Positions 2,584 through 30,536 of a stretch of DNA of 64,000 nt are shown here, in pieces. A model generated the notes under the pieces. The model had not been told where the DNA came from, made no database searches, and was given only the letters and a program-made list of their open reading frames with translations. Source of the stretch: Vermamoeba vermiformis (taxonomy: Eukaryota); NCBI GenBank assembly GCA_045837725.1, contig JBEWZL010000278.1:1-64000 (forward strand). The letters run 5' to 3'. Position numbers and translations under genes: made by a program. Positions within the stretch are counted from its first letter, which is position 1. Each line of letters opens with the position of its first letter.

Positions 2584-5500
2584 ATGGATAGTCAAGGAGA
2601 GCTTCCGACCCTCCATCCGAACGTTGTGGAAGGTAAGTAATCAGAAAAATTCTAAAAATCGATTCTCCTCAAAAGGTGGATTATGTAATAATATTACAAT
2701 GGTCAAATTACTTGGCTGAGCCAGATTTACCGAAAAAATAAAATTCTACAATTTAAAGTCCTTTCAAGTTTCGTGTTAGATCATAATATAATTATTTTTA
2801 TCATACAGCCCCTGGCACAGTTTTGCAAGGACATGAGTCATTGAAAACTTCGCATACTTGGTGGAAAAAACCCGTCTCGCAGATCTTGCAAAAGAAGCAG
2901 CTCATAGAAAAATTATCTAAAGGATATGATACCAATTTCCCTCGAGCCGTTATTCAGTCTAGTGGTAAGTCTTATTAAAGATCAAGGAGTAACGCCTCAA
3001 AAATAAATTTCCGATTTAATTTTCCAGATTTAGCTCTTGAGGTCCGGGTTTGCTAACGGAGCACTAAATAATTATTCTAATTTTATTTTTATAGTTGCCC
3101 CTTCAGAGGAGGCCGTAACCGCCTGCCGTTTGATCACAAAATGTTTACAACTTCGAACAAAGTACGAGGCAGAGAATCCGTGCGTAGATCGCATGTTTAC
3201 GCTGGGAACATTTGATCCTATCATGCCGGCATCACAGGTATTAATATCAATCATGATCTTAATTTTAAATCAAACGGAATTGCCGTTTGTGCTCCGATCG
3301 TTTACTGAAAAATTTTAATGCAGCACACTATGAAGACTATTAACGGTATTATACACGCATTTGACGGTGAAACAGGTATGCTATAAAAATATGCTTTTAT
3401 AAGTTATTAATCTGTCTTATAGACGTTACACCGGTCATTAGTGTCGAAGATTATTTGCAAGACTACAAATTGTAAGGCTTTTAATGCTTTTTATTGTATT
3501 CTTAAGCTTAATTTGCTGAAATTTCATCATTTAGTGTCGTCGAGACTGATAATACTGGCCCTGCAAAGACGTTTTCGTACTTCCGTTTGAAGAGTTTGGA
3601 ATTCAAATTCGATTTTCATATTTTATTGAACGATTCGAGAGAACAATTGGCATCACAAGTAAGTATATATATGGTATAACAATCTATACATTTGCTTAAT
3701 CCCTCATGTTTTAGTGGGATCCGAAAGACTTCGAGTCCGTGACCAAGGTCGACACGCACATTCATTTGAGTGCTGCAATGACTTCAAAGCACCTATTGGA
3801 GTTTATTAAGAAGACTGTTAAAGAGCGTCCCGATGTGAGTATAAATCATTATTTGCGAGCATTATAGTGTTATTTATATGTGTTGCAGGATATCGTTAAT
3901 GTCACCAAAGACGGCAAGAAAGAAACTTTGAAAGACTTGTTTAATCGTCTTAACATTAACCCCGAGTACTTTACTTTGGACTCATTAGAGACTCGCGTAT
4001 GTATATATATAACAATCATAGTATTCATAACAAAGCAAGTTTGAAAAATTTGGATCCGGATCTGACGTTTTGGACAGGCTGGTGACACGTTCCAACGCTT
4101 CGACAAGTTTAATATGAAGTACAATCCATTTGGCAAAGGCGAGCTAAGAGATGTCTTCTTAAAGACGGCCAATGTGATTGAAGGCAAATATTACGCTGAC
4201 ATCACAAAGGAGTGCCTGAAGAAGATGGAGAAAAGCAAGTACCAAATGGCTGAGTACCGTGTATCGATCTACGGTCGTAAGGCGAGCGAGTGGGATGAAT
4301 TGGCCAAGTGGGTCGTGAACAACGATCTATTTTCAGCTCACAACCGTTGGGTCATTCAGTTCCCGAGAATTTTCTTCGTGTTGAAGAAAGTCGGTTTGAA
4401 GCACTTCCAAGAACTGCTCGAAAGTAAGATAACGATTTCAATCGTCGAATTCATTGCTAATATCTTCTCAGATATGTTCATGCCTTTGTTCGAAGTAACC
4501 CGGGATCCTTCTTCGCATCCGGATCTCCACAAGTTTTTGACTCATGTTTGCGCCTTTGATAGTGTCGATGATGAAAGCAGAGCTGAGCGTAAATTCGACG
4601 AAAAGTAAGCCTATTTGAGTAGGGAATGAAAATCTAACTGTGATTTCATAGTACGGCGAAGGTTTACCCTGAGAATTGGAACACGGAAGAAAATCCACCG
4701 TACGCGTACTACAATTACTATTTTTGGGCAAATATCACGGTTTTGAACAAGTTCCGAAGACTTCGTGGCATGAAACCGTTCGATTTCAGACCTCACTGCG
4801 GTGAATCTGGTGACTTGGACCATTTGGCCTCGAGTTTCTTGGTCGCCAAGCACATTAACCACGGCATCAATTTGGCCAAGACGCCAGTGCTGCAATATTT
4901 GTATTACTTGAAGCAGATTGGTCTCGCTGTTAGTCCGCTCAGCAACCACCAACTGTTCTTGCAGTACAAGGACAATCCTTTTGCACGGTTCTTCAAGAAA
5001 GGTCTTAACGTGTCATTGTCAACCGATGACCCTCTTCAGGTACGTCTTTCATGTCGTTTTAATATAGCACCCGGTGCTTATTGTCATTCAGTTCCATTAC
5101 ACGGAGGATCCGTTGCTCGAGGAGTACGCAATTGCAGCGCAAAGATGGAAGTTGGGCGTTTGTGATTTGTCAGAAATTGCACGCAACAGTGTCTTGCAAT
5201 CGAGTTTCGAGCACTCTGAAAAGATGAGATGGCTCGGACCTAATTACAAGAAAGAAGGATCTGACGGCAATGACATTCGGTTCACGAATATTCCTAACAT
5301 TCGTATTTGCTACCGTTACGAAACTTTGCAATCGGAACTCAACTTGCTCAAAAGGTACGCAAAAAAAAAAATTCGCTGAAAAAAACAACGATTTAATAAT
5401 ATCTGTCGTATAGATTCAGCACTTCTGGTCAAATGAGCCCTCGTGACATTTCAGTTAGCATGGAGACTACTGAAGCTTTGGGCAAAATTGTCGTTAAAAG

Positions 5501-8089
5501 TCCTCATCCAAGTACGCTTTACTCATCTTATCAAGTGGTTTTTCTGTGCTAATGTAATTATTCTAAGGTCCTGTTACTGATGAAGAAGAATTGGGCGCTC
5601 GCCGCTTGACCAGTGCATTAGAGTTGCGTCGAAAGTACAAACAGCCAATCATTACTAAAGCTAAAGTCGAAGGCCCTGGCTTCACGTCAGGCGTAAGTAA
5701 CGAAATTTCATATTTTTCATAGGAGCGGATCTAATCGTTACTGTTCAATAGTATACGTTCAGATCGCAAGGAGGTGTTTACTACGTGCGTGAATGCATCA
5801 CTGTTGGCGATAGAACGTTCGTTGATCCCACCGCACTCATCGTGTTGCCAAAGTACGCCGAGTTCATTCACGACTACAATAAGATCGTTGAGATATGCCA
5901 TTGCGGTCCTACTGGTACGAAAAAACTATTCAAAAGTGAGTTAGTAACTTAACGTTTTTATATTTGCAGCTACGTTGTCTCACATTCGTATGCGATTGAT
6001 GGAATATCGATTCGAGTTCCATACTTTGTTGAACGGTAGCCGCGAGTCTGACGCAATGAAGGTACCTATAATTGGAATATATGTAGTGCTCGGCAAGCTT
6101 ATTAACATTTTTATATAGAACTTGAAGTTGGACTACTATCATATGTACAAGGTTGATAACAACGTTCGATTGAACACTGGTATGGTCGCCAAACATTTGC
6201 TCAAGTTCATCAAGACCAAGATTAAGAACCATCCTCACGTAAGTCAATGACTATATTAGGCAAGTGCTCGTGATGTACTTACAATATTTCCTTTTTAGGA
6301 TATCGTGTACATGCACGGCGATAACCCTGTGACACTTCAAAAAGTGTTCGATGGCATGGGCATCACGCTTGAAAATTTGACGTTAGATTCGCTTGATGTC
6401 AAAGCTGAAGGCACTTTCCAACGCTACGACACGTTAGAAATGAAAACTAATCCGTTCGGAGTTGGAGAGCTGCAGACTTTGTTCTTGAAGTACGACAACT
6501 TCTCCAAGGGCAAGTACTTCGGTGAATTGGCGCGAGAGTTGTTGAGCAAGAAGAAGAAGACGCCGTATCACTTGTTCGAGTACAGATTGCCATTTTTGGG
6601 AAGGTAAAACTCGTCACGATCGATCGAAAGTATCAAACTTCACCTCGCTCATTTTATTTCCTTTTTTAGAAATCGTCGTGAATGGGATGACTTGGCCGAT
6701 TGGGTAGTAACTAATGGCTTGGATTCATCGCAAATCAACTGGGTCATTGAAATTCCTCGTGGCTACAAAGCGCTTAAAATGAATGGATCTGTTCATTCAT
6801 TCCAGGAACAATTGGACAGTAAGTAAATCGTTCTATCTACAATTTATATATCTAACATACTCTTATTAGACATTTTTGCGCCATTGTTCGAAGTCACTCA
6901 AGGTAAGAGAGGTTTTCAATAGTGGATCCGGATCTAATGAATTTTCTGCACAGATCCATCAACGCATCCAGCCTTGGCCCGCGTTATGCACAAAATTTCG
7001 GCGATTTCTATGATCCCTCACGAGCTCAACAGCTCTTCGACTCATCGCACGATCATTTCAGGAAATGTTTTGCCACGTGACTGGATCAACGACGATAACC
7101 CTTCTGTCGCGTACACGATGTACTACTTTTGGGCTAATTTGCAGTCATTGAACTCATTCAGAAAGAACTTGGGACTTTGTACGGACACTTTTTCTATATA
7201 TGGCAATTAGTCTAATTTCCATTTTTAGCTACGATCAAGTTTGTGCCTCAAAGCGGATTGAGCCTTGAAGTTTCTTCGGGCATTCCTATTGACGTTATGA
7301 TTTCATTCTTATTGGCCGATGGTACGACTCTCATTAACCAAATAAGGAAATAATCCCGTGCCTAACTTTTTTTTCTTTGCAGAAATCTCGCAAGGCATTG
7401 ACTTGGCGAAATCATCGACGCTTCAATATTTGTATTATTTGGCGCAGATCGGAATTTTCATCAGTCCACTCAGTGTCAATAATCTCGTGATCGATTACGA
7501 GAAAAATCCGTTCGAAAAGTTCTACAAACGAGGTCTGGCTGTCACTTTAGCGACTGAAAACCCACTTCAAATTCATATCACGAACGATCCTGTCGCTGAA
7601 GAGTACGCTATTGCTGCTCAGGTACGAAAACTTTTTAAAATCGAAGAGTCAAACCCTAACCCTCGACAAAAATTTTAAGCCGGCTAGCTAAAACTTTGCA
7701 GTTTTTTTACGAGGCTATTGAAATGTGTTACAGAGTGTATTTTAATTTTATTATGATGATTATTAACTTTGATTACTATATTTAGATGTGGAAATTCTCT
7801 ACGTGCGATTTGGCCGAAATTGCGCGCAACAGTGTTTTGCACTCTGGTTTTGACAAAGACGTCAAAACTAATCTCTTGGGCAAACACTACGAGAAAGAAG
7901 GTGTCGAGGGCAACGGTAAGTGCCGTGTTAATATAAGATATAATTATATGGAAGTTAATATTTGCGTTGCTAGATCCGTCGAAGACGAGTTTGCCCAACA
8001 TTCGTGTGAACTTCAGAAGCGAGGCCTGGCACCAAGAACACGAATTCTTACACAGCGTGGTCAATCATAAGTCCGTCGAATACCAGTAA
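2584..8089 (+). CDS. AMPD: AMP deaminase with two tandem AMPD domains (N-terminal intact, C-terminal degenerate)
   Basis: Domain 1 has [21 protein letters not shown] and SLSTDDPLQ. Domain 2 has [20 protein letters not shown] and TLATENPLQ. The linker exons at about 5415-5511 and 5568-5692 splice in frame. Stop TAA at 8087-8089. Confidence 0.9.
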
Positions 8090-8231
8090 AGGCTGAAAAA
8101 AAGCTGTCGATAAAAATCATGATCCGGATCACAAAAGGCCTAAAAAATGTTTTATTTTATTTTTTTAAGTAGTAAATTAAATTAGATTATCATCGATGTG
8201 AAATACTTGTTTATTACTGTCGTACTAGCGT

Positions 8232-9561
8232 TCAATGCTCAATACTGTCACGCAAGCCTTGCAAGAGGCTTAAACGTTCTTTAGATGAGCGCGCAAGACT
8301 GTCAAGTAAGAAATAAAAATTTGTCATTTTCTCCTCTGCGGTTGGATGTGAGTACTTTTGAAATCTTGCAAACTGATTGGCACTATCGTACAAACGAACT
8401 CCATCATCTCCGATCAAATATTGAAGCTTAAGAACGGTATGCAGTCCTCGGATTGTAGAAGGAACGTAACCATCATCACTATCATTATGGAACTCATTTG
8501 AGTAGCCGAAATCTTCATACTTGTGCAGACGGATTAGCAGACAATTTTCTAAAGGTTAAGAAAATTTTCATTAATAATAAGGACTCAATTATTCGTCCGT
8601 GTTCGAGCAATACATTAACATGGATTGGTTATTATGATACTGTTTTAAGATAAATACTACGTACCAAATAGCTCGTATGTTTTAACGTAGTCCGGATCTG
8701 CTTCGATAATTTCCTTGACATTCGATTGGACAATATGCAAGTTGAGCAATACAGTCGGATAATTTAAGTCAAAATTGACGGCAGTTGACGGCCAGTGCTT
8801 GACCTCGTAACAAGTACTGTCGGTCAAAAATTTCGCTGCAAAACACTGACAAATCTGCTCGTCGCCGCGAAGCCAGACAATGACTGACGTAAAAGATTAG
8901 TATGATACTGTATATATTCGACAATGAGAACTTACTTTTTGGTACCTTGAAGTTTTGTAACGCCGATGCGAGAAGATTTTCTTCGTTGGTCATCTTTTGT
9001 TTCTGTTCTTGAACCTGCATATCAAGTTTACTACGCTCTTCTTTTACGAGAAATTCAAATTTTCGTCTTTCGAGTGAGTCTAAATCTGCGACCAAGCTAT
9101 TCAAAAAGGACGGCAACGGAAAAAACTCCGATGTCCGGAGAGGTCTGTATTCGCTTTCCAACGAGTAAACTTCGTCGTGCGAGATCTTTTTCAGTTTTTC
9201 TTCCAATGCACGTTTGACATCAAGCAATCGGTCGTTTGCTCGGACTTTCTTCTTTTCAATGACCATTACATTTGATAGCATTTCTCCGAGCATTTTCCAT
9301 CCTTCTTCATCATTGGCGGATATCCTCGCCCACATTGATTTCCATAGTCGTCTCGCATCCGATTTGACACTTGGATCTGCAATTATTTCAAACTTTGGCC
9401 ATAATGCATTCTCAACCTCGGATTGTTTTTGTTTGCCATTTGGGCTAAACGCCCTCACAACGCTGCCTTATTTAACAAATTTAGACTTCGAAAAACGAAC
9501 GAGTAACCAACTTACTAACCAAGCTGCGTAAGAGGCCCTTGTCATGTTTTTCATCCGTCAT
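8232..9561 (-). CDS. Hypothetical protein: coiled coil plus C-terminal alpha/beta (possibly TIR-like) domain; left member of head-to-head pair 1
   Basis: Four exons splice in frame: MTDEKHDKGLLRSLV/SSVVRAFSP...coiled coil...KVPK/IIVWLRGDEQ...YEVKHW...LLNLHIV...YELF/ENCLLIRLHK...RDSIEH*. Confidence 0.7.
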
Positions 9562-9610
9562 TAGCTGAGTTTGAGCGAGAGTACTGTTGTAACCAGAATT
9601 TAAGCTCGGT

Positions 9611-9876
9611 GTTGCAATAGGAGAAGATCAATTGTTTTTTAAAGTTGACTGTTTTAACACGGCGAAGACTGCACGTTTTTGATTTCAACTTTCATAGTTC
9701 ACACAAATGGATTTTCGTCCATTGAAAATATACCGTGTTGATTTGGTCTTGCACAACCGTTTGTTTGATCGTTTTTGATTTGCCGTGTCGAAATTGTGTC
9801 ACAATTCTCCAACACGGCGTGTTGAAACTTAGTTCGGTTTGGAAATTTAAATAATACCTGTTTCAACACGGCAGAA
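9611..9876. promoter_or_regulatory. Duplicated intergenic element, copy 1; putative bidirectional promoter with clustered AACACGG motifs
   Basis: Homologous in direct orientation to 16437-16713. AACACGG or CCGTGTT at 9656, 9733, 9811 and 9865, with variant CCGTGTC at 9783. Lies between divergent start codons at 9561(-) and 9951(+). Confidence 0.75.
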
Positions 9877-9950
9877 GATCTTTCGTCTCTCCTTAAATAC
9901 GCGTACCTATTTAATTCGACAATATCAAACACTCGTTGGACAACTGCAGG

Positions 9951-10863
9951 ATGGGATCCGTTTTCTACGATGAAAGTACTCTTGACAAAATCATCGCTGA
10001 CGCCATAGATGACGTTATAGGATTGAAAAATGGCACCGATGACTTTGTTACGAGGATTATGGAGTTAAGAAATGCTATGAGCTCCGTGCGTACGAGATCC
10101 GAAGAATTCAAGTTGGCTACCAAAGAAAAATACGAAAGAACGAGAAAAGGAAAGGAACAAGAATTAGATTTCATATCCAGAAATGCATTTAAATATCCGA
10201 ATTCACTCCCAGGCAGTCAAAGATTATTCTGCTCCTGTACGATCCGATCAGACTACTCTTCGTCAGCCTCAAGTCCAACCTTCAGCTCGTATACCTCCGA
10301 AACACATCGCTGTCGAACGTCCTACAAGTAAGAAGTTGTAGCAATTATCCTTCGTTATCTAATAATTAAATCGATTATTATTGACAGAAACGAAAATTTA
10401 CGTCTCAAAAGGTGATTTTCCAAGCAGTATTACCCAAGAACTGCAAAAAATCAACTCTAATTTTGAATATGTCTTTTGGACCGATGATATGTCAGTTCCT
10501 AGTAACTCTTGGCTGTTGCACTTCGAAGACGTGGTTACTCGGCTTGACGACGAAGCACTTCCTAAGAAAATTAAGGACTTAGCCTTAAAATGGGGTATGT
10601 TTTTATATTTCAATATCCGGGCAGTAAATTTCATGTTTTTCTCAGAAAATCGCTTCGTCTTCGTTAAGTTGTACAAGGAGCGCGGAAGTGCTGTCGCAGA
10701 CTATCGTAACAATCAATACGAAAGCGAATTTCTTCCAGGAATAAGAGTAGCAAAAGGGATCTATCGCCTTAATGTGCGCGACAACGGAATCAGCAAATCA
10801 GTCTCGAAGGAAATTATCGATTCGTCTGAGCTTCGAACCATGTTTCAAACTATTGCTAAATAA
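9951..10863 (+). CDS. Hypothetical protein: helical N-terminus plus C-terminal alpha/beta (possibly TIR-like) domain; right member of pair 1 and distant paralogue of 8232-9561
   Basis: MGSVFYDE... then a Pro-rich linker, then /KTKIYVSKGD...FEYVFW...WLLHFEDVV...LKW/ENRFVFVKLYK...TIAK*. Joining the 5' ORF to the linker needs either an intron at 10090-10180 or a 1-nt frameshift near 10170. Confidence 0.65.
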
Positions 10864-11859
10864 ACGTTTAACGATGTTCGAGAAGTTGGTCGGTGAGTCC
10901 CACGCTGAGACAGATCTTTCAGGCCAGTCCTGGTGCAGACCAAAGCCGCGAATACGCATCGATATGTCGTACATGCCACTCGTGCGACTGTCCAGACCAT
11001 TCCAGAACTCGCGCATGAAGAACTGCCATGGCGAATAATAGCCTTGACGAGCAGTGTGATGCACATCAGTGGCTCGTCGCCGCACACTTTGGACTTGAGC
11101 CGTGGCATCAGTGCTCGGTTCGGCTGGTTCCGTAATTACTTGGACTAGCCTACAGCTTAATGACATAGTTACCGGTTTGAGCGCGATGGCATCGGATCTT
11201 GTCCCTAATAGGCATACGTAGGCTGCGGATCAAAGTTTGATGCACACCACGGTACGAAGGCCCAAAGCATTGAACTGCCCAAAGATAAGCTGTTACACCC
11301 ACATCGGCCGTATCAAGCAGTTAGTTCGTCTCTCTCCTTAATCCGTAGCACGAAAAGTTCTTGATCCGAGATTTGTTCTGCAACTCAAAAATTACGTCCT
11401 TACAAAACTGAAAAATATGAGCCATTTTTCGGGTATTTTATCCAGTTTCTGAATGTAAATATCGCACCGCAAAACGCGGATCGCATGCTTGAGTTTCTCC
11501 AAAACGATAGAAACGTGATCAGAAGCTTGAGCGTATCACGCAACTATTTTTGTTTTGATAACTCGGGCACGTCATAAGACTTACTTGACAAGTGGAACGT
11601 TCTTTGGAAGATCCACTCCAGGCGATAAAAGTGCTGCATCCAACAAGTTAATCGTGATTACGATTAAATCATAAATTTGTGGATATAAATATGATAAATT
11701 TGTTGATAATCAAAGAATTTATGGCCAGTACGCCCTTTTACGCAACAAAGTTATCAATAAGATTTTTCTCGTGACTTTTCTCCGCATAATAATGTTAGGG
11801 AAAAAAATCGCATAAAAGTGACATACGTCATCATTATTTCTCTTTTATCAGTCATCATC

Positions 11860-13273
11860 ATGAACGCTAAACTCATTGCCGTCCTGCTTTTGGGCTGCTT
11901 GGCTCTTAGCGCTTTGGCCGATTTCCGCGTGCCTTTGCAAAAGATCAAGCGATCTGCCGCTGAAGAGCGTGCTCGCATTATGAACGCCAAGGAGCGTGCT
12001 ATTAACAAGTACCTCGGAGGCACTAACCCCGTCGACACCTTCAAGAACTACGATGATGTAAGTAAATCAGAATATTTTAATAATATCTTTTTTGCTAAAT
12101 CTGCAATCCAGGTTGAATACATTGGTAACGTTACCATCGGTACTCCCGGCCAATCTTTCCGTGTTGTCTTCGACACTGGTAGCGCCAACCTCTGGGTTCC
12201 TGGCGTTAGCTGCAATGACTACGGCTGCCAAGGCAAGGCCAAGTACAACTCAAAGAAGTCCTCCACCTACCAATCCAACGGTGAGTCCATCTCCATCCAA
12301 TACGGAACTGGCTCCATGGACGGTTTCTTGGACGTCGACAATGTTGGTATTGCTGGAACTACCGTTGCTGGTCAAGTTTTCGGTGAGGCCACTGATCTTG
12401 CTGACTTCTTCAACGTAAGTATTGACGCGTTTACGAAATCGAATATTATTACGGTCATAATTTTTAAATCAAGCTATAATAGAACCGCAAATCAGAGTTC
12501 CTAAATTTAAGCACAAATCTAATAATTTTTTTAGGGTCAACCTATGGACGGCATTCTCGGTTTGGCTTACCCCGCCATTGCTGCCGATTATGTTACCCCC
12601 GTCTTCGACGCTGATGATCAGCCAAAGCCTCGTCTCTCAACCCATCTTTGGTGTCTTCTTGGACTCCAACCCTGGTGATCGCCAATCTGCCATTGATTTC
12701 GGTGAGTAGCATTATTTTCCTTGCGCGCTATCGAATTTAATTCAACACTTATCTTCATTCAAGCTTAAGATACTATCGTCAGATTATTTTTAAAATTATG
12801 TTATTTTGACACTCGCATCTGCAGGAACCATCGATTCTACCAAGTTCACTGGTTCTCTCCAATACGAGCCTGTTGTTTCTCAAGACTACTGGACCGTCAA
12901 GTTGACTGAAGTCAGCGTCAACGGTAACGACGTCTCTGGCTGCCAAAATGGCGGATCTGGATGCCGTGCCATCGTCGACACTGGTACTTCTTTGATCATT
13001 GGCCCCACTGCCGCCGTCAACGCAATGAACATCAACGTTGACCCTGGCTGCAGCGGTATTGACAAATTGCCCGTTATCACCATCAAGATGAAGAAGTTGA
13101 CCTTCAAGATCCCTCCCAAGTACTACGTTATCAAGTCTGAGGGCCAATGCTTCTTTGGTATCCAAGGTGCTGATGGTTTGCCTTTCTGGATTTTGGGCGA
13201 CACCTTCATTCGTGCTTACTACACCCTCTTCGATCGTGGTCAAAACCAAATCGGTTTTGCCCCCGTCAAGTAA
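11860..13273 (+). CDS. Pepsin/cathepsin D-like aspartic protease (family A1), secreted; apparent +1 frameshift at 12610
   Basis: Signal peptide and propeptide, catalytic motifs VVFDTGS and AIVDTGTS, flap YGTGS, DGILGLAY and WILGDTFIR. An extra G at 12610 breaks VFD|LMISQSLV. Confidence 0.93.
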
Positions 13274-13545
13274 ATCTGATCGAGGATCTACAAGACAAGC
13301 ATTTGCGCTTTATTCCTAGCTGTTCTGAATAGTAGGGTAAAGAGTAAATGTGTCCCTTACAAACGCAGGTTTAGTGGCTTTGTGAATTTGCGAATAAAAA
13401 CACTTTTGAAAATCAAATCTGTTGCTCGGTCAAAACTCAATTTTAATAATTAAACGATAAAAAAAAAAAAATCAAAATAAATTTGATGTAGTCATGCCGG
13501 CGCTTACAGAAGCATTATCACAAGCGGATTGCGGATAAAAACCTG

Positions 13546-16362
13546 TTATGCGTGTTCAGGTTCGGCAATTGCAATGCACTCAGCACCTTCTTGCTTGAAC
13601 ATGATGTGCTTCACTCTAAAGTTGTCCAGTTGCTTCGGCTTAATCACGGCACCATGACACAAGAAGACAAAGCCAGTTGGTACTTCGATATCCTTGGTCA
13701 TTATCTCTTCAAGTTGACGCAACGTCATTGACTTTTCCACAATACAAGCGCCGAGGGACGACTTGTCCTTGTTGTTCAACACTACCAACGGAAACTGGTC
13801 CTTTAAAAATATCCGCATTAGCTTTCGTGAGTGCTGTTAAGTGTCACTTACGGAGGCCAGATCCGATGCTGTCAAGTCAGAAAGTACGAGGTCAGTCACG
13901 ACAATTGTGTCTTGGTTCACGAGGCAGGCTACAATTGCGGTGTTAGCTTCCTCTAGGAATGGCACAGGAGTGTTTTGAGGCTTCAAGAATTGAAAGCCTT
14001 TAAGTTCGATCTCTTCTTCAATAAGTTTTCTGAGGTCTGACAATGTGACGTGCTTCGGCTCGACCAGTACAGCACCCTCAGGCTTGCCATCCTTGATGAT
14101 AGTAAGAGTGTCGGGTACTGTCAAGTCAATGTCAACAGGGACTTGTTGAAGGGTTTTGGAGGCAGCACGTGGTATGACTGTGACGGTCCAGTAGCTGTAA
14201 GTGTTGTCTGATTTCGCGACACGTGTCAATGCAGTGCATTCTTCAGCGTTAACGGGAGTTTCAGACGCTTGTTGGTTGACAAAGACGAAGTCCTTGAGGC
14301 TCGGAATGCACTGCAAAATTCTTTCACGAATGACGTCTAATGTCGTCTCTGAGGCCCCATCAAAAGTAGCCGTTCCAATTACATCGCCTTTGGTATCTTC
14401 AACGATAATGTGCTTCTTCAAGTCGTTGGCGATCTTGGTGTTAGCAAATTGAATGGCAGCATGGAACGCGTTGAGTGCCAGCTTCTCACGGACCCACTCT
14501 GGTTTAGAATATTGACCAGTGTAGTTCATGACGGGGAAGATGTTTGTTAGCGGTATCTTCGTTCGAGTGCTGAACTCTTGGATGTGAGAGTCGATAATAC
14601 CAGTGTCAAAAATTGCTTCAAGTTTGCCGGTAATATCTGCTTCCGGAACCAAGTCAGGCTTAGTAAGAATCACAATGGGTTGGTATCCTTTGCTTGTCAT
14701 TCTGCCAACAATACGATTAATTTGATGACGATTAATTTGATGTGAAAAAATAAGGCAAAGATTTGAAACTCTTACTTGGCGAAGAATTTCTTCAACTCGT
14801 CAATGTGCGAATCCGTATAGATTGACGGCATTTCGTAGACAATGATTACTGCATGAACGCGATCACCGACAGTAGGCTCCTTGTTAAGCGATTTGAGCAG
14901 GTCTGAGTTCTCTTTGTAGCCGTCTCTGAGTGCGCCGTCAAGGAAAAACTCAAGCTCCTGGGACCACGAGTCACCACCTTTCCAGCCATACGTGTCGCAT
15001 AGTCTAATGGCGTTATTGCGATTGTTCTTCAAGAAACGTTTTCTGATCTCCAAGGTCACCGTCGTGATGTCGCTCTTGGTCAGTTGAGGCTCGTCATAAG
15101 ATCCGTTCATGATCGACCAGATGGTGTTGAAGAAGGCGGACTTGCCGTTGCCAATACGACCGAGAAGGGCAATGTTCAAGTAATCAATGCCAAAGTGCTT
15201 AAGCTCCGAGGGAACAGCGTAACATTCGAGCTTTTCGACCATTTTCCGAACTCTGTCTGGAAGATCTCGTCCTTGCAAAACAGCCGTTTCGGGATTTTCT
15301 GCAGTTGAAAATATTAATTGACTGTTTACGAAAACAAATGAATAGCTTGTTTTTACCTCGTAAAGTACGAATCTCAGTCACTTCTGACCAGCCAGTAACA
15401 GCAGTGCCATTGATTGCTTTGCCTCGAAGACTGTAAACGGAATTCGGCTCCAATCCAGTTGCGTAAAAGACATTCGACTCGGCAAATCCAAATGGAGTCC
15501 ATTTGTTGCTATTCTCCCGCAAGATTTCAATATCAACCCTTGTAAAGGGAGTGCTTGACACTATGTCAAACGATGCTTGTTTCGAACTGCGCGTTCGAGG
15601 GTTGATCTCAGGGGGACATCCTGGCTTGACGGACAGATACGAGACGACAAGACTCATCTCGCTAAAGTCATTGACGAAGATTGCGTGATCTGAGAGGGCC
15701 ATGACAGCTGTCTCGGTGTTGCCGCTTAAACCAACTCCGATCGAGATCAACGTGATATTTTTCTGCAGAAAACAGAAATTGTGTTATTTTTCAAAGTTCC
15801 GTGAAATTCACAACGTACCTGGGTCAAATTCGCTTGGATGGCTTGCGCACCGCTGACGTCGCCGTCAGTCATCAGCACAATAGTCTTGTGGCAATTGTTT
15901 CTATCATCAGCAGCGAACATATTGATACATGTTGTTAAAGCCAAGCCTGCGTTGGTCCCTCCTCTTCTTTGTGGTGTTGAAACAACGGCTGTGTTGAAAG
16001 CTAGTGCATCAGCAGTCAAGTGGCTAATCACGTAGACTCCGTTGTCAAATTGAAGCTATGGATATGAAGATATTAAGCAATATAATGAACTATAATAAGG
16101 CATTCTTACTCCTCCAACGCGGTAACTTGGATCCTCAACATTTTTCAGGCCTAAGTAGTTGACCAAAGTTCGGATGCAGAACTTCATCGTCTCCCATTGA
16201 TGAACTTGGACCGAACCCGAGCCATCCACCGCCTGAATATCATATAAGTACGAATGTCGAACTTCGCATACAACTTACAAATAAGATATCTTGCGGAGTA
16301 GCAAGGCCAGTGAATGCTCTCTGCAGTAGATCCGCTTTTTGCTCAACGGTAAGTCTGTTCAT
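13546..16362 (-). CDS. VWA - FN3 - IFI44-like P-loop GTPase - three ubiquitin-like repeats; left member of head-to-head pair 2
   Basis: VWA MIDAS DILFAVDGSGS, GGTN and VLMTDG. FN3 GLEPNSVYSLR..N...WS. GTPase G1 LLGRIGNGKS, G3 LCDTYG, DRVHAVIIV, G4 ILTKPD and IFPVMNY, as in the IFI44 family. Three C-terminal repeats of pattern G...TL..(I/L)R..I...F.F(L/V). Confidence 0.8.
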
Positions 16363-16436
16363 GCTAATCTACTAGGCTTAAATAAGTAGGGTGGTTGTAT
16401 TTAATACGTTGTGTTGTAATAGATCTTCGCGATTAA

Positions 16437-16713
16437 GTTGCAATAGAATAAGATTGAAATTGTTTTTAAAGTTGACTTTTTCCAACACGGCGAGGACTGC
16501 ACGTTTTTCATTTCAACTTTCACAGTTCACAAAAATGGGTTTTCGTCTATTGAAATTATACCGTGTTGATTTGGGTCTTGCACAACCGTTTGTTTGATCG
16601 TTTTTGATTTGCCGTGTTGAAATTTGTCACAATTCTCCAACACGGCGTGTTAGAAACTTTCATTTGGAAATATCGAACTAAGTTTCAATTAAACCTGTGT
16701 CAACACGGCAGAA
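16437..16713. promoter_or_regulatory. Duplicated intergenic element, copy 2; putative bidirectional promoter with clustered AACACGG motifs
   Basis: Homologous to 9611-9876. Motifs at 16484, 16561, 16612, 16639 and 16702, plus one more at 16734. Lies between divergent starts 16362(-) and 16790(+). Confidence 0.75.
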
Positions 16714-16789
16714 AATCATTCAATTGATTCATCAACACGGTAGGCGATTAAAGGTCTCAAAGTTTTAAACTGAAAAGAAGCAACAAACA

Positions 16790-17758
16790 ATGGCTGAGCA
16801 ACCGATTGAAACTACCCCTGTAGCGCCGCAAGACGAGTCTTCTAAAGCAAAAGAATTTGTACAATTATGGGTAGCAGAATCCTATACTTTGAACAGCAAT
16901 GACCTCACTACGTTCACTCTAGAATCGATAATCAAATATATGCATAATGGTTCTCGTTCGTACTTACAAAAAGTACCGGATCTAGAAAAATCTATTAAAG
17001 AAAATGCAAGGATGAAAGGCGAATTGAAAAGAAAGCAAGACTCCTTGCACGATAAACTAAACCGCATCGCTAAGGAGGTGGCTCTTATTGAAGAAGACGC
17101 AAATTCGTGCCAATCACAAGCAATTTCTAAGTGCAACGAAATTGACCGAAAAATTCAAGAGCAAAAAAACGAGTACGAAGAGAAATTACGCAAGGAAAAG
17201 ACGAAGCAGTTAGAAGAGGTCAAAAGACAAACAGAGCACTTGTATCGAGCTATGAAATGCGAGCAAATGAAGATGCTCGATCAATATCAAGAACAAATTG
17301 TGCAGGAAGAGAAGGAATGGCAAAACCTCGTTAAGTTAAGCGAATCCAAGAAAAAATGGCGCTCAATGGCCGAATTTAACATACCAGAGCGAGAAAGAGC
17401 AGATCAAATTAATGTGGAACGAAATAACGTTGAATTTAAATTGATCGTAACGGAATCGGAAGAGATCCTGGACGAAATAAAAATGCCAGAACTTACAGTA
17501 AAAGCCGAGGAGCCAGTCATAGCACCAGTGAAGTACATCAGTGTTAAGACCAAATCGGACGGTCAGCTGGTTGCCACAGTAGCCGTCAATCAGAGCGAAT
17601 TGTCAAGTTTGAAACTGGCCGGATTTAGAGCTCTCGCCAATGAGTTGCCGACCGACTTCACATTTCTATTCAAAGGAGCACCAATACGGCTTGGACAAGA
17701 ATCGAAATTTGCGTTGAAGCAGGTGCTGGATGGAGATAACGTTTGGATCAAGAACTGA
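16790..17758 (+). CDS. Intronless coiled-coil protein with C-terminal ubiquitin-like domain; right member of pair 2
   Basis: 322-aa ORF with a long E/K/Q-rich coiled coil. The C-terminal ISVKTKSDGQLVATVAV...LPTDFTFLFKGAPIRLGQESKF resembles repeat 3 of the partner (VPTGFVFLCHGAVIKPKQLDNF). Confidence 0.85.
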   Translation: MAEQPIETTPVAPQDESSKAKEFVQLWVAESYTLNSNDLTTFTLESIIKYMHNGSRSYLQKVPDLEKSIKENARMKGELKRKQDSLHDKLNRIAKEVALIEEDANSCQSQAISKCNEIDRKIQEQKNEYEEKLRKEKTKQLEEVKRQTEHLYRAMKCEQMKMLDQYQEQIVQEEKEWQNLVKLSESKKKWRSMAEFNIPERERADQINVERNNVEFKLIVTESEEILDEIKMPELTVKAEEPVIAPVKYISVKTKSDGQLVATVAVNQSELSSLKLAGFRALANELPTDFTFLFKGAPIRLGQESKFALKQVLDGDNVWIKN

Positions 17759-18236
17759 TCAAATTATTTTTAATTAATTGCAGCCAAAAATTTAAAAATT
17801 ATAAAGAGTAGCTGAATTATATTAGAGTACACTTGGTTATCATACCAAAAATAAAATCCGAGCTAACGGTACCTTTGATTAATTTTTGGAGCAAATCTCG
17901 AAGCTATCTGTTCTTTGAACGCGTACGTATAGCCCTTAACGTATTGCAGCGTATGCAGTGTATTTGGCTCGAAAAGTCAAAGCTTGCGCTGCTTGTTTAG
18001 TCTAAGCTTGTGGTTCTGAACATCGCTTGAAAAGCAGCAGTTGCCTTTTGCTCGCAACTACCCGGATCGTCATGCAGAGGTAATTAGCCAAACGAACGTG
18101 CGTTCTAACTCGCATGTTTTGCGAGAACAGTAAGAAATGGCATACCCGTTGATTAATTTTGGTAATTTTGACCGAACAAGAATTTGCAAAGGCGCCAATT
18201 TTATTCTCATCACCTACAACTTATTGTACACAACAA

Positions 18237-21578: not shown

Positions 21579-22046
21579 CTCTTTTTCATGACTCGAGAAT
21601 AAAAGCGCTGGAATTAACTTAAATGATACCGCAAGTTAATGATTTCTATATTTTCTAAGCATGGGGTATTGTTTCGTGTGGATTGGACTTGTGGGTTTTT
21701 AAATTCAGCTTCACCTTTAAAGATTCTGCACCAATTTAATTTCGGTGCAATTCCTTGCGTATCTTTTAGATAAAGTACACTTTTATTCCGGTTCGGTTAA
21801 TTAAATAAATAATCCAGGTTTTTTGCTCTGGATAAAAAGGCAAGTTAATTATCGTTTGGAAATTGTATTATATACTACTAAAGGACTTATACGGAGAGTC
21901 TTTGCAAACATGAGCTATGCGAATACTTATTTGGTTTAAAGTTTTGTACGTAACTGTCAAATCAATCAGTTTTGTGAATAAAAAATCAGCTGCGTAATTT
22001 TGATTTAATTAATTTGTAATTTACGTTTCGAATTGCGCCAACACAA

Positions 22047-24664
22047 ATGAAAAGTTCTCGCATATTTTTTGTCGCTTTGGCACTCTTTTCGATTATTTCC
22101 GTCGCTCATCTGGCTGGAACTGTTAGCTGGACCGGCGTTAATTTAGCTGGCGCGGAGTTTGGTAGGATTTTTTACAGTATATCGCATTAATTAACTAACG
22201 AATATTATTTATACGTTAAGATTCTTCCGCTGTTTGGCCCACTACTGCAGATATGGATTATTTTGCATCAAAAGGGATGAATATTTTCCGAATCCCTTTC
22301 AAGTGGGAGAGATTACAGCCCAGCCTTGGCGGAGCATTCGATTCTACTTATTTGGGTCAATTAGATTCCATCGTGACTTACGCTACTAATAAGGGTGTTT
22401 ACATTCTTTTGGATGTGCACAAGTACGTTCTAACGGCGCCAAACTGACTCCAATTATAGTATATTAATGTAGAATTCTATTTTAATAGTTATGCACGATA
22501 TAATTCCGTTCCAATCGGCGGCGGTCTGTCAAACGAGAATTTTGCGGATTTATGGACCAGATTAGCCACCAAATACAAAGACAACGCGAGAGTAGTATGT
22601 AAACAAATACTGCTAAATTTTATTTTGTTTTGGATGTACTCAAATAAGCCTAATCGTATTAACTAACCCCGAACGTAGTTGTTTGGCCTTATGAACGAAC
22701 CTAACACGATGCCAAATATGTAAGATAATTAATTTAACGGTAATATTTAATTCCTACGGGCTATCTAACTTGTTTTGTCAAAAAGTAATTGGAAAAACGG
22801 AGCCCAAGCAGCAGTGAACGCGATCCGAGCAACTGGTGCAACGAACTACATCTTGCTTCCAGGTAATACTAGCGCTATAAATATGTACTTCCAAACATCT
22901 TCTAAACAATATGATAGGCAATGGTTGGACTGGAGCTCACTCGTGGTTGCAGACTTGGTACGATAAGGATGCCAGCTCGCCATCCTCCAACGCCGACACT
23001 ATGATTCAAGTGACTGATTCAGCCAACAAAATGATCTTCGAAGTGCATCAGTACTTTGGTAAGCTTTTATGGAGACGTACAGTCATCTCTAGTCACATCT
23101 AGCGGTCATTTTAAGAAAATTTGAAGTTCTTACCGGATACTGGTTCTTTTCTGAATAATATCAGAATTCGGGAATTAGTGCTAATTAAATTTAATTTAGA
23201 CAATGGCTATAGCGGAACATCACCCGATTGTCTTGCCCCGACTGTCGGTATGTCGATTTGTATGAGGTAAAAAGATTTCTTACTGAATAATTTGCTTTAT
23301 CGCAGGAAGCGACAAGCTCGTCGACTTCACCAATTGGTTGCGCCAGAACAACAGAAAGGGTTTCTTGGGCGAGTTCGGTGGATCTGAAAGCACGAACTGC
23401 TTTTCAGCCTTGACTGATGCTTTGCAATACATGCAAGATAACAACGACGTTTGGTACGCGTACTCAATGAGTCATATATACGATTCTAATGTATATGTAT
23501 TTTTAGGGTTGGTTGGACTTACTGGGCTGCTGGTACGATCTTTTTGACATTTTGACACTTTTTGTTGACACGTGTCATTTGACCAACAATTTGCAGGTAA
23601 TGCATGGCCAAGCGATTACATCTACACCCTTCAACCAAAGAACAATTATCAAACTGATCGTCCTCAACTTGCGTACATTCAACCGTTCATTTCTCAAAAC
23701 ACGGATGTCTCGATCCCGATGGCACCATTCTCCATTCCGCCTCAAACCCCTATTTCTCCTCAAACCCCAACTTCTTCCAGCTCGAACTCATGCACGGGTG
23801 GAAACTCGTTGATAGTTTTTGACGACGCTTTACAAAACGGTTTTGAAAACTGGTAAGATCCACTGTTATTTCATGCGAATCAAATTCTCAAGGTTTTTTA
23901 TTATAGGAGCTGGGCTACTGATATGAACTTAGCCGACACCTCGTTGGTGCACAGCGGCTCAAAGTCTGTCAGTTTCGTCCCGCAAAACTACCAAGCCTTG
24001 TTCTTTGCCGTGTCCAGCAGCACTTTCTCAACATCGTCCTACAGCGGAGTTGAGTTCTATATCAATGGCTCTCCTAATGGTAATATATAATCGTGACCTA
24101 TCAGTTGAACGGTGTACTTACGGTTTATACAGGTGGTCAGCAGATCCGTGTCGGGTTCAGAAAAGTCAAGGACACCGAATACGGTACTCCTACTTACGTG
24201 AACGTTAACAACTACATTGACGGTTCTTCAATTGGCAACACTTGGAAGCGAGTCTACGTGCCGTTCTCAGCAATGAACATTGGTACTGGTGATAGCCTCA
24301 TGTCAATGACCATTCAAGCCGTAAGTGAAACTAGTATGCTACACTGATATGTCAGATCGACTAATTTATACGTAAATCTAGGATATTCAAGCTGCTCAAG
24401 CCAGAGTATACGTTGATGATATCAAGTTGATTTGTGATGGTAAGTTCACACTGACTAAATTTATCGAGAAGCGAAATTGGTACTTACGAATTATTTTTTG
24501 CGGAACCAGCCTCTAGCCAAACTCCATCATCGTCTCAATCTCAAAGCCCTTCGTCGACCTCACCATCGAAATCACCTTCTGCTGGACTTTCATCCAGTGC
24601 AACGTCACTTGTTGCGGTATCGATTTACAGTGTAATTGCTGCAATTCTTGTCTTTGTGCATTAG
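22047..24664 (+). CDS. GH5 endoglucanase (GH5_5-like) + CBM8-like module + Ser/Pro stalk + GPI/TM tail, copy 1
   Basis: Signal peptide, [28 protein letters not shown], acid/base LMNEP, FEVHQYFD, nucleophile FLGEFG and WTYWAAG. CBM8-like [14 protein letters not shown]...VEFYING. Hydrophobic C-terminus. Confidence 0.9.
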
Positions 24665-25148
24665 TAGTCCGAACAATAAAATTTATTTAATTTGATATCG
24701 CGAATGATTCTCTTTTACGGGTATTTAATATTTATTACTACGCCAACCGGCTGTCAAAAAAGATACGGAAATAAAATTATCGCAATGATTTGCACGTCAG
24801 TTTTCGAGTACAAAACAGAAATTCTTCCGGATTACCGAATCACGAAATCTGTTAAACTAAACTTGCTGTTTTACAATGGAATGACATTATCTTTCGGTTT
24901 AGAACAGAAGTGTTAGAATTGGTTGGATCTTGGTTCCTCACCTACGTTTTCGCTCGAAGCCACAGCACGGTATAATACTCCGAAGAACAAGAATGTATAT
25001 GAACTCGCAAGATTGCTCCTGTGAGATAGTTTGCAAAACGGTTTGACACGTGTCAGAGTGTCAGATTAATCATTGTGTAATTTGTGACAAAATAAAACGA
25101 AAATCTTTATTAGTCAATCTTTTTAAGCTTCGCAGCTATCAACAACAC

Positions 25149-27929
25149 ATGATAATATGCGCTTTTGCAATATTATTTTAGCCATCCTTATTACCTGCGC
25201 GCTTTTAAGTTGCATCCAAGCGACAGTAACGTTTACTGGCGTTAACTTGGCTGGCGCGGAGTTTGGTAAGATTTATTAATACATTTCGCGTTAATTAACC
25301 AACGAATATTATTCATATATCAAGATTCTTCTGCTGTTTGGCCTACTACTGCAGATATGGATTATTTTGCATCAAAAGGAATGAATATTTTCCGAATCCC
25401 TTTCAAATGGGAGAGATTGCAAACATCCCTCGGGGGAGCGTTTGATACTACATATCTAAATCAATTAGATTCTGTCGTGAATTACGCAACCAACACCAAA
25501 AAGGTTTATGTGATTTTGGATGTGCACAAGTAAGCGAACGACATTAATTAAAGTTCAAAGCAGTATTTTCTAACTATATGTGCTTCATTACCTAGCTACG
25601 CACGTTACAACAGTCTTGTTATCGGAAACGGGATCACAAACGCGCAATTCGCCGATTTGTGGACTCGATTAGCCACCAAGTACAAAGCTAATGATAAAGT
25701 CGTAAGTATAAACGAGAGTGTAGTGAGTTCCCGAGATATTTTCAATCGGGTTACGAAGTCAACAACGATATACCCGATCTGGATCTAACCTCAGTTTTCA
25801 GATATTTGGTCTAATGAACGAACCGAAAGAGATGAAGAATGTGTAAGTAAAAACGGTCACAGTATAATTCTAATGACTGAAAGTGATTGGAAAGACGGAG
25901 CCCAAGCAGCAGTGAACGCGATCCGAGCAACCGGTGGGACGAACTACATCTTACTTCCAGGTAATACTTAAGCGCTGATAAATAGGTACTTACAAATATC
26001 TTCTAAACAACGTGATAGGCAATGGCTGGACTGGAGCTCACTCGTGGTTCCAAACATGGTACGACCAGGGCAGTCCGCAAACCTCCAACGCCGACACGAT
26101 GATTCAAGTGACTGATTCAGCCAACAAAATGATCTTCGAAGTGCATCAGTACTTTGGTAAGCTTATCCAGGAAAAATACAGTCAATTTCTAATTGTTATG
26201 CAGACAGTGGCTATGGTGGTACTTCGGCCACATGCCTCGCTCCAACTGTCGGTATGTCGACTGGTCAGAGCGAAGAAGAATTCAAACTGATTAATAGTTG
26301 CAGGAAAGGACAAGCTCGTTGATTTCACAAACTGGCTGAGACAGAACAACAGAAAGGGTTTCTTGGGCGAGTTCGGTGGATCTGAAAGTACGAACTGCTT
26401 TTCAGCCTTGACCGATGCTTTGCAATACATGCAAGACAATAGTGACGTTTGGTATGCGAATTTTGAAACGCTAGTTATTTAATTAACGTCTTAATCATCA
26501 GGGTTGGTTGGACTTACTGGGCAGCAGGTTCGATTTTTTTGGACATTTTGACACTTTTTGTTGACACGTGTCATTGACCGACAATTTGCAGGTAATGCAT
26601 GGCCAAGCGATTACATCTACACCCTTCAACCAAAGAACAACTATCAAACTGATCGTCCTCAACTCGCGTACCTGCTGCCGTACATTTCATCCGGTACGCC
26701 AGTTTCCATTCCGATGGCACCTGTCGCTGCGGTTGCACCTGTAGCTTCACCACCCGTTGGTAGTTGCACTCCTGGAACATCGGAAAATATCTTCACCGAC
26801 TCTATTCAAAGTGGCTGGGAGGATTGGTAAGTGCATCAACAATAATGACTCGTTATTAATGTTCATTAACAGGAGTTGGGCTGATACAAGAAATACAGCA
26901 GATACTTCTTTGAAGCGAACAGGAACGGCTTCGTACAGTTTCACTCCAACCAATTTCCAAGCAATTTTTTTCGCAAAAGCGACCAGTGGAACTTTCTCAA
27001 CATCGTCGTACAGCGGAGTTGAGTTCTATATCAACGGATCTCCTAACGGTAATACATACTCGTTTCCTAATCGAATGTTATTCTTACGCTTCACACAGGT
27101 GGTCAGCAGATCCGCGTCGGATTCAGAAAATCAGGTGACTCGGAGTACGGTACTCCAACCTACGTGAACATCAATAACTACATTGACGGCGCTACTTCCA
27201 TTGGCAATGTATGGCGACGAGTCTACGTGCCGTTCTCAGCGATGAACATTGGTCTTGGCGACACGTTGATGGGCGTCACTATTCAAGCAGTACGTAGAAC
27301 CATGATTGAGCTTGGTGATGGCTCGTAGTTGACGTTACTGTAGGACATTGCAAGCACACAAGCTAAAGTGTATCTGGACGACGTTAGATTGATTTGTGCT
27401 GGTGCTGCTTCTCCTGTCGCTACGCCGGTTTCCACTCCGGTGGCGACACCTGTCAAGCCTCCTACGGCAACGCCAGTTGCCACACCTGTCACTGCTCCTG
27501 TTGCGACACCCATTAGACCTCCTACTTCAACGCCAGTCGCCACAGCAGTCGCAGCTCCTGTCAAGTCTCCTACGGCAACACCAGTTGCTGTTCCTCTCGC
27601 TAGTACCAGTTGCTGCTCCCGTCAAGCCTCCGGCCACTACTCCAGTTACCATACCAGTAGCAGAACCAACTGCTACTCCCATCACCACACCAACGAGCGG
27701 ATCTGCACCAGTAGCAACACCATCAATCGATGCTCCTGTTAGCACCGAAGTCCCTGTGGCTAGTGCTGAGCCTAAAGCTGATGACACACCCGTTGAACCA
27801 ACGACCGATTCATCACCTGTCGCCTCTCCTGTTGCAGCCGGAAAGACGCCAATAGTATCTTCGATTACTTCCAGCGCCGCGAAATTATTGTATTCCAGTG
27901 CCATCGTTTGTACTTTCATTTTACTATAA
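25149..27929 (+). CDS. GH5 endoglucanase + CBM8-like module + long Pro/Thr/Ala/Val stalk + GPI/TM tail, copy 2; apparent +1 frameshift near 27602
   Basis: Same catalytic motifs and exon layout as copy 1. The PVATPV repeats switch frame at about 27602, where ORFs 27368-27742 and 27396-27929 overlap. Confidence 0.88.
27414..27840 (+). repeat. Coding low-complexity tandem repeat ([12 protein letters not shown]), mucin-like stalk
   Basis: Recurrent cctgtcaagcctcctacggcaac-type units encoding [11 protein letters not shown]. Confidence 0.8.
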
Positions 27930-29291
27930 ACATGAATTCCCTACGTCACTTTTTTTTTTGTAAACAAGAGACTGCAAGCGACTTATCGAGCGAGTTGGAT
28001 TCATAGTTTTGCAAATAATCAATACTGAGAACGTTTATGAGCGTGGACTGTAGCGTACGATTTGTATTTATTGACATTTATACAAAGTAAGTAAAAGTAC
28101 TTTGCTTGGTGATTACTTTCGTGTCTTAGCTCCTCTTTCTTTGCGAATGCGTGGCTCTTCGAAGTAATAATCAAAGCCAAATACTTTAGCAGACGCAGCG
28201 AGATGGGCGGAACCATATATTGCCCTTTGCTATTTATTCTAGTCTCTCATGGTAGTCAAAAAGATAGTTATATCTCATTTGAGGGAGGTGCAGCGAGCCC
28301 GACAAAGATAACATACAATTTCAATTCCGAGGCACTTTTTTTAGCGACCCTTAGACATTCTTCTCGCCCCCACAGTTTCAAACGCGGAACGCGCCAAGCA
28401 AGGATTAATCCCTCATTGTCTCGCCCAGTGAGCGTTGGGCCCAGCGGCGGTAGAGGTGACGGCGGCAGGGAGCGAATGATATTTGACGCAATATACTAAT
28501 TGCTTATTTTTGGCATTAGCCGGAAGTTGAACAGAAGGGGCTTCCAGCGTTGCAAAACCAATAGATTCAATTTTTCTGTGCCACATCGTCTGTTATAATA
28601 CTAAATTAATGCTATTAATTAATTGCAATCTCTGTAAGCTTTCGTTGTTACACTCTGGCACCGAATAAATCGCTGTTTTACAGGAATATATTTTTTAATT
28701 GACGTGTGGTTTGCTTTTTTGGGAGGCAGTACGTTCTAACAAAAATTACAACGGTCAATTTTAATTTTTCCTTGCACACGAAACAACGATCTTATCGGCG
28801 TTGCAATTGTTATCATTAGGTATTTTCATAAATACTTATAATTTTAGCAAGAGACTTTTTAATACATAACGATCACCAGATCTGATCGAGTTGAATTTTT
28901 AATTAATGTTTCAATTATCAATCAAAAAATATTGAACGATGAGAGGTAAGAATATTACTATTTTTCGTGGACAACTAATCTAATATTATTTAGCACAACG
29001 CTTGATTTTAATTGAGGAAGAAATAATTTGGATCCATAAAGTTTCCTTGCAAGGCCCAAAATCTTCGGTGTCGATAGCGTAGCGATTGGGCTAGCACGTA
29101 ATCTAGCGGGTCTAGTGTTGGTGATCCGAAGATAGCATCGCGATGCCAGAACGTCAATCAAAATTACATCAAAATTTCAAACGCTCCACAAAAATCACAT
29201 TGATTGCGTTGATTTTGCAATACAAAACGCCAAAATCTATTGATTTGTTTATTTTGTGCTTAATCAGAGACCGCGTTACAACAACAAAATA

Positions 29292-30301
29292 ATGCGCTCT
29301 GTCAGCCATCTTGCAGTAGCCTTCGTGCTCGTGGCACTTTCGTGTGCTTTGACCAGCTACGCCGGTGTTGCTTGGACCGGAGTTAACTTGTCCGGAGGAG
29401 AGTTTGGTAAGCTCTATTTAACGCAGTATTATCCATATTTATAAACTCTTTTAGGTGGTCAGTCGATCTGGCCCTACACCACTGACATGGATTACTTCGT
29501 CAACAAAGGCATGAACATTTTCAGAATTCCATTTGACTGGACCAGAATACAACCCTCGCCTAATGGTGAGCTCAACGCTTCTGAGCTCAACGCGTTAGAT
29601 GCTCTCGTTCAATACGCGACTGTTACAAAAGGAGTTTACGTCGTTCTGGATGTGCACAAGTAAGTCAGACTAATTCAGGATTATTATTTTTAGCACGGAT
29701 CTAACTATCTTATTAAAGCTATGCCCGTTATAACGGTCTTATTATTGGCCTTGGTATTCCATACTCAAGTTTTGCGGATCTTTGGACCAGATTGGCCACG
29801 AAGTACAAAACCAACTCAAAAGTCGTAAGTTTACGATTATTACTAATTCCGTAAGAAATTGAATCAAAGATTTACCGTAATTTTAATGCGGAATATCACA
29901 TTTTTCGATATAACAGCCGCCTTCACTAACGATGTATTAGCTCTTCGGCCTTATGAATGAGCCTTATAGCATGCCCAATAAGTAAGTTATCGATTTCTTA
30001 CAAAGATTCTGATGCACGTGTTTCTTTCAAGTGTTTGGCGTGACGGCGCACAAGCTGCTGTGACCGCAATCCGAGCAACTGGTGCTACGAACTACATCTT
30101 AGTTCCAGGTATATTACCATTTATATATAGATAGTACTCGACACCTTCTAACGATTATAGGTAATGCCTGGACCGGAGCTCATTCTTGGTTGGGTACTTA
30201 TTACGACCAAGGTGCCAACCCACAACGATCAAACGGTCAAGTTATGCTTGAAGTTTACGATCCTGCAAACAAAATGATCTTTGAAGTGCATCAATACTTT
30301 G
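29292..30301 (+). pseudogene. GH5 endoglucanase copy 3, 3'-truncated
   Basis: Intact signal peptide through LMNEP and FEVHQYF with the same intron positions as copies 1 and 2. No downstream exon encoding GEFG, the CBM or the tail is found before the next gene. Confidence 0.75.
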
Positions 30302-30536
30302 GTAAGGCTTTCATAGACCGTGTAAAAAAGTCAATCATAGTGCGGGATTCGTGCACGGAAAAAATTTTGATCCAGGCACATAATCCTACATGTTGCAGGC
30401 AAATGGAATATCTATATGCTTACAAATTTAGTTATGCTGCAAGTAATATTTAAGGATATCCTTCTCCTGTCTCCGCGGATGATGTGACGTTAAGGCAGGG
30501 TCATAAAGTTTCACAACCGATTCGCTGAATTTTGCG

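Follow-up and report, generated by a model that had tools for sequence, protein, structure and literature searches.

A 64,000-nucleotide stretch of Vermamoeba vermiformis DNA (positions 1 to 64,000 of contig JBEWZL010000278.1, hereafter the window) carries two copies of a short block in which the word AACACGG recurs in both orientations, each copy lying between the starts of two divergently oriented predicted genes. The site cluster is real, non-random, apparently low in copy number, duplicated, and in promoter position. Judging from its sequence, the block is, on balance, probably a recently copied module that acts as a compact promoter in both directions and carries a homotypic site cluster. 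Bidirectional (head-to-head) promoters that carry homotypic clusters of transcription-factor sites form a general class; from free-living protists, few cis-elements are known to our knowledge. The gene content of the window (AMP deaminase, pepsin, F-box, with spliced reads at the pepsin gene) is that of an intron-rich microbial eukaryote. Its GC content and the several haplotypes seen fit the values given for V. vermiformis, 41.7% GC and a ploidy of about 4N (PMC7125106).

The duplicated block and its AACACGG sites

The two copies of this ~275-305-bp block lie 6.8 kb apart and are 85% identical over 291 columns in a blastn comparison of positions 9612-9884 with 16437-16721; blastn found no third copy in the window. 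They occupy most of the respective gaps between divergent predicted start codons, namely, 9562-9950 (389 bp, bounded by the ATGs at 9561 and 9951) and 16363-16789 (427 bp, bounded by the ATGs at 16362 and 16790), both shorter than 1 kb, and the first exons and splice sites of the flanking gene models agree in phase (Table 1). The genes around copy 1 (pair 1) showed no likeness to those around copy 2 (pair 2) by tblastn.

All eleven motif copies listed in the preliminary description of this DNA are present, ten as exact AACACGG (9656, 9811, 9865, 16484, 16639, 16702, and 16734 on the forward strand; 9733, 16561, and 16612 on the reverse) and one as the variant GACACGG (9783, reverse), within which the single contig of DNA run X1 covering position 9789 carries the consensus letter. 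One block present twice accounts for both clusters, however, so the independent positions number six. The extended form given there as usual, CAACACGGC, occurs exactly at 6 of the 11 sites; the real word is the 11-mer YYAACACGGYR, which holds across sites on both strands and fits all 11 cluster sites (one with G for the first A) as opposed to 1 of 11 other core matches, a score obtained on the same cluster sites from which the consensus was derived. At the four flanking letters the six positions agree in purine/pyrimidine class, and they are otherwise little alike. Site 6 of copy 2 had been placed outside the homology; it aligns in fact with the AATACGCGTA of copy 1 (about 9896-9905), where its counterpart may have been lost or changed, rather than the site having been gained in copy 2. 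An occurrence of CCAACGCGGTA at 16114 was discarded as a site, being within a coding exon.

The clustering exceeds chance both in the window and within a single copy. AACACGG occurs exactly 17 times in the window against 5.64 expected, a count reached in 1 of 100 shuffles, and the 7 matches outside the clusters are at background level. The six occurrences in copy 2 were matched in 0 of 2000 shuffles and the four exact ones in copy 1 in 11 of 2000, figures corrected post hoc by admitting every 7-mer that has three G/C or more; with that composition condition lifted (any 7-mer), the figures are 123 of 2000 for copy 2 and 289 of 2000 for copy 1. Among 236 intervals of 420 bp (positions 1-47600), only the one at 16401 holds six copies of any 7-mer with at least three G/C. 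Two further words, the W-box-like TTGACT and AACnGTT, occur singly in both copies near background density. No description of the AACACGG motif was found among the open-access papers listed in literature searches.

Divergence between the copies is uneven. Identity runs from 73% in the left arm to 93% in the core, 59% in the linker between sites 4 and 5, 93% at site 5, and 52% beyond it, with 12 events against 160 matches in the core and 19 against 86 in the arms (p 0.006), a distribution more in keeping with constraint or gene conversion than with an insert that decays evenly. For comparison, a tandem pair of cellulase-like paralogues (22-27 kb) served as a control; their gene bodies are 74-81% alike and their upstream DNA is without alignable sequence; the block was therefore copied recently or has been held alike.

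Table 1. Positions of the block copies, motif sites, and flanking predicted genes in the window
Feature	Position	Strand	Remarks
Block copy 1	9612..9884	.	Fainter similarity runs on to 9585 (left) and ~9905 (right)
Core with sites 1-4	9652..9822	.	93% identical to 16480-16650 (160/172 columns)
Site 1, copy 1	9654..9664	+	11-mer
Site 2, copy 1	9731..9741	-	
Site 3, copy 1	9781..9791	-	Variant GACACGG
Site 4, copy 1	9809..9819	+	
Site 5, copy 1	9863..9873	+	80 bp before ATG 9951
ACGCGT at the place of copy 2's site 6, copy 1	9899..9904	.	Fits CAMTA-type VCGCGB; 47 bp before ATG
Block copy 2	16437..16743	.	Fainter similarity runs on to 16412 (left)
Site 1, copy 2	16482..16492	+	
Site 2, copy 2	16559..16569	-	
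Site 3, copy 2	16610..16620	-	
Site 4, copy 2	16637..16647	+	
Site 5, copy 2	16700..16710	+	82 bp before ATG 16790
Site 6, copy 2 only	16732..16742	+	50 bp before ATG
Left gene, pair 1	8232..9561	-	Predicted spliced, with a short first exon and a phase-matched GT-AG intron; 3' end predicted from open reading frames
Right gene, pair 1	9951..10863	+	Predicted two-exon gene
Left gene, pair 2	13546..16362	-	vWA (DxSxS motif across intron 1), FN3, IFI44-like P-loop GTPase, three ubiquitin-like repeats
Right gene, pair 2	16790..17758	+	Single exon, 322-aa coiled-coil protein; C-terminal domain like the left gene's ubiquitin-like repeats

The case for a probable bidirectional promoter

A promoter function is favoured because the cluster of a single copy is already beyond chance, its sites share an 11-letter consensus, and both copies sit between divergent ATGs. 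It is further favoured because site 5 keeps a near-constant spacing (80 and 82 bp) to the right-hand ATGs of unrelated genes across a linker that is 59% identical, and because there is no terminal inverted repeat longer than 7 bp, the blocks have ordinary depth, and the two genes of pair 2 share a domain type. Depth was read from contigs of run X1, possibly made from the very sample that gave the window, and amounts to 186 and 184 over the blocks as compared to 95-426 in the other 28 bins, figures that are not copy numbers. The earlier proposal of one factor driving both directions finds partial support in the position between divergent ATGs, the both-strand 11-bp consensus, and the spacing of site 5, with direction deduced from position only.

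From the sequence we infer factor binding, two-way activity, and inducibility. One sequence-specific factor would bind the five to six YYAACACGGYR copies in mixed orientation and, once bound, switch on the flanking genes in both directions together. The module would have been copied from one head-to-head gene pair to another unrelated to it, or its two copies would have been homogenized by gene conversion, and four lineage-specific genes, including an IFI44-like GTPase and its partner with a ubiquitin-like domain, would thereby have come under one conditional switch. Such an arrangement resembles other homotypic-cluster bidirectional promoters in that one site is repeated in both orientations within a divergent gap of about 400 bp; it differs in that one module would serve two unrelated gene pairs.

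As to the candidate factor, a CG-1/CAMTA-like protein is the best lead. Read on the opposite strand, the core is CCGTGT, which fits MCGTGT at 11 of 11 sites, a weak match given that the 6-mer has a background of 1 per kb. MCGTGT is bound by plant CAMTA3, and MCGTGT and VCGCGB are given as CAMTA sites in the excerpt of PMC4890006; ACGCGT, a VCGCGB form, stands in copy 1 where copy 2 has site 6. A CAMTA is present in Acanthamoeba (PMC4053784, in excerpt), and PMC4770041 reports that the unicellular algae it surveyed lack full CAMTAs, CG-1-bearing CAMTA-like proteins being present in two of them. Neither gap holds ACGTGT, and the two together hold only one CGCG form.

Several observations weigh against the promoter reading and its candidate factor. 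The motif here is an 11-mer with fixed flanks and its cores are all CCGTGT, which is narrower than the CAMTA 6-mers. Over the whole block, conservation of the motif columns does not clearly exceed that of the spacers, and within the core no advantage is seen (p 0.30-0.54). The claim in the preliminary description that motifs are retained where spacers have diverged holds for site 5, which lies beside the 59%-identical linker with its 12-bp indel, and is unproven as a general statement: across 12 whole-block settings, 34 of 35 motif columns and 213-231 of 232-262 spacer columns are conserved (Fisher p 0.02-0.23; circular-shift p 0.02-0.07). Nor does the 93% identity between the two cores require selection, because other haplotypes or paralogues of the locus, seen as X1 contigs, differ by about 4-12%. 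In RNA runs X21 and X23, which come from another strain, mostly 90-95% alike at the pepsin gene, reads fall on the pepsin gene only and essentially none on the four genes or either block; in that strain the four genes may be unexpressed, missing, or too different in sequence. Finally, a promoter moving without its genes is the behaviour of mobile DNA, and three unrelated dispersed-repeat families carry AACACGG arrays in both orientations.

Alternative origins of the block

The alternative that survives best, possible if on the unlikely side, is that the block is what remains of a non-autonomous element or of one end of a DNA transposon, inserted into two promoter gaps, with the motifs representing subterminal transposase-binding repeats; later co-option into a promoter may or may not have followed. 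The block did move without its flanking genes, and the ends of maize Ac carry repeated AAACGG transposase sites (excerpt of PMC13635294). An 8-bp direct repeat surrounds copy 2 (16429 and 16744), lying exactly at the left homology edge, with a chance probability of 0.002-0.06; copy 1, however, has no such flanking repeat, and similarity there runs on to the left of the supposed edge. Terminal inverted repeats are absent, the longest exact inverted match between the block ends being 7 bp, and no pile-up of X1 contigs on the blocks was seen at 80% likeness. Among the loose contig ends listed for X1, none of 6 fell inside the blocks, a further 150 loose ends lying beyond those listed.

The comparison with dispersed arrays elsewhere points both ways. 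A three-site pattern scan returned 84 metagenome stretches and one viral contig, by design selecting repeats because it demands three copies of one word, and it was run with no control word. Among its yield are 17 loci of an element of about 500 bp with 11-17 sites near the match and one sharp GAGG end in 12 of 12 ends (11 different flanks), together with a palindromic family at 15 loci and another at 13. Arrays of this sort typify transposon ends. None of these arrays is homologous to the block: blastn of the metagenome and viral contigs against the window was empty (0 of 84 loci after one was dropped), and in the dense metagenome arrays listed the YY..YR flanks occur in 0 of 15-17 sites. Relatives of the block were likewise absent from prokaryote genomes, and protein-based locus scans gave nothing. 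In sum of likeness, Ac/Ds with its AAACGG repeats (PMC13635294, in excerpt) and the arrays at scan loci L005/L023, L001, and L006 share with the block a short word in both orientations, a few hundred AT-rich bases, and unrelated flanks; the block differs in having no terminal inverted repeats or convincing target duplication, an apparently low copy number, another consensus, and no homology to them. Were the block such a relic, it would be ordinary.

Some of these loci are of interest in themselves. L005, L008, L009, and L023 with 13 related loci (for example, L023 9931-10426) have an AT-rich end of about 500 bp bearing an extended AACACGG word 11-17 times in both orientations; such loci have a sharp GAGG terminus, lie in GC-rich eukaryote-like contigs, and in some copies run on for 1.2-1.7 kb. 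This element looks like a DNA transposon end. L001 (1083-1616) and 14 related loci represent a palindromic dispersed repeat of about 500 bp with AACACGG sites near its centre, and L036 (30-1860) holds about 25 partly palindromic repeats at a regular period of 71-75 bp with varying spacers, a CRISPR-like array.

Other classes of mobile element fare worse. A long terminal repeat retrotransposon, with the blocks as its terminal repeats, was rejected: the interior holds the pepsin gene and the GTPase gene, no gag or pol was found among the scanned open reading frames, and the homology passes CAACA. Helitron ends were not seen on inspection by eye only.

A quite improbable account holds that the cluster arose incidentally, through local duplication and folding back of DNA within a promoter gap of the ordinary kind, and was later copied by conversion, with most sites idle. 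Sites 3 and 4 are indeed the arms of one imperfect palindrome in the core, sites 3 and 5 have 13 bp in common, and the core spacers are conserved as well as the sites. In one X1 contig, moreover, a diverged version of the left gene of pair 1 is joined to 31 letters that match the left edge of copy 2 and from which the window's own copy 1 differs; it points to exchange between the copies or to a third locus. Against such a by-product stand the agreement of six positions, which otherwise share little, in purine/pyrimidine class at four flanking letters, and the survival of site 5, with its spacing from the ATG, across a rearranged linker.

That the block is a structured noncoding RNA or DNA hairpin element with pairing opposite-strand motifs is very improbable. 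In its favour are the RNA folding z scores (copy 2, -2.47; copy 1, -1.70); against it, the two predicted folds pair different sites, inverted motifs alone account for the energy, Rfam gave 0 matches at E up to 1 within 8000-18000, and the other-strain runs have no RNA reads on the block. A sigma-70 scan of copy 1, a type of scan not applicable here, gave nothing.

Flanking genes and the wider window

The left protein of pair 2 carries an IFI44-type GTPase domain, assigned via TLDc-bearing relatives and not via a named IFI44. Its GTPase exon has 191 relatives; in the 30 scanned of the 150 listed, TLDc was found in 7 (6 of them above Pfam's cut-off) and vWA in 8. TLDc together with this type of GTPase is the layout of IFI44. 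IFI44 itself has a TLDc domain (excerpt of PMC5614904). In the left protein of pair 2 an N-terminal TLDc is absent, with vWA and FN3 in its place, and ubiquitin-like repeats are added. The combination of vWA and GTPase in 8 of the 30 scanned relatives, some with zinc ribbons, represents an undescribed-looking protist family. The C-terminal domain encoded by the right gene of pair 2 resembles the left gene's repeats (phmmer E 1e-4 in a 12-protein set). For this shared domain, the structural model has a predicted local distance difference test (pLDDT) score of 62.8, and each of the ten best Foldseek rows is a ubiquitin-like fold, none of them significant (best E 0.37); the fold search is thus no more than suggestive of a ubiquitin-like fold.

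A cnidarian antiviral programme includes IFI44 (PMC13319465, in excerpt), and Acanthamoeba encodes homologues of interferon-inducible GTPases, according to the excerpt of PMC4053784. No study of IFI44 in protists was among the open-access papers listed in searches on it.

Upstream of animal IFI44 lie interferon-stimulated response elements (ISREs), so that repeated sites before an IFI44-like GTPase gene are common to both settings; the motif here is unrelated in sequence to ISREs and gamma-activated sites (GAS). A speculative extension of the promoter reading, to which we give little credence, is that the module might be a portable inducible defence switch, a two-way enhancer-promoter moved from one gene pair to an unrelated one, in which clustered sites for a CAMTA-like factor co-induce the GTPase, the partner with the ubiquitin-like domain, and two orphan genes that evolve fast. 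Under the same low estimate, taken jointly, it would play the part of the interferon-stimulated element in a cell that has no interferon. Were such an inducible switch true, the 11-mer would let the defence regulon be listed genome-wide and the factor be fished out, and the block would provide a clean case of promoter transplantation building co-regulation.

The pair 1 genes are more obscure. The left gene encodes a helical/coiled-coil part and matches no Pfam family; for the right gene neither a family nor a homolog was found (atlas scores at most 0.82), and a fold search with its model (pLDDT 49.6) returned no match. At 8991-9421 in the left gene, a second haplotype or paralogue has 50 differences in about 430 coding bases, above the neighbouring loci, and this divergent second copy possibly reflects diversifying selection. 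The aquifer run X13, whose coverage is very low, contains near-identical pieces of the genes and has zero depth in the bins of both blocks.

Between pair 1 and the pepsin gene, a GC-richer stretch (10870-11340) is apparently a decayed gene fragment; it is partly matched by X1 contigs that continue into other sequence, one haplotype being rearranged there. Elsewhere in the window (3000-8100 and 22000-30500), AMP deaminase is present as two tandem genes, and three tandem genes with Pro/Thr-rich linkers, glycoside hydrolase-like by their motifs, are found as well. Finally, 32139-64000 is a 16-kb inverted duplicate around a 100-N gap (47714-47813), with arms 95-97% identical, probably an assembly artefact in which two haplotypes were scaffolded head to head.

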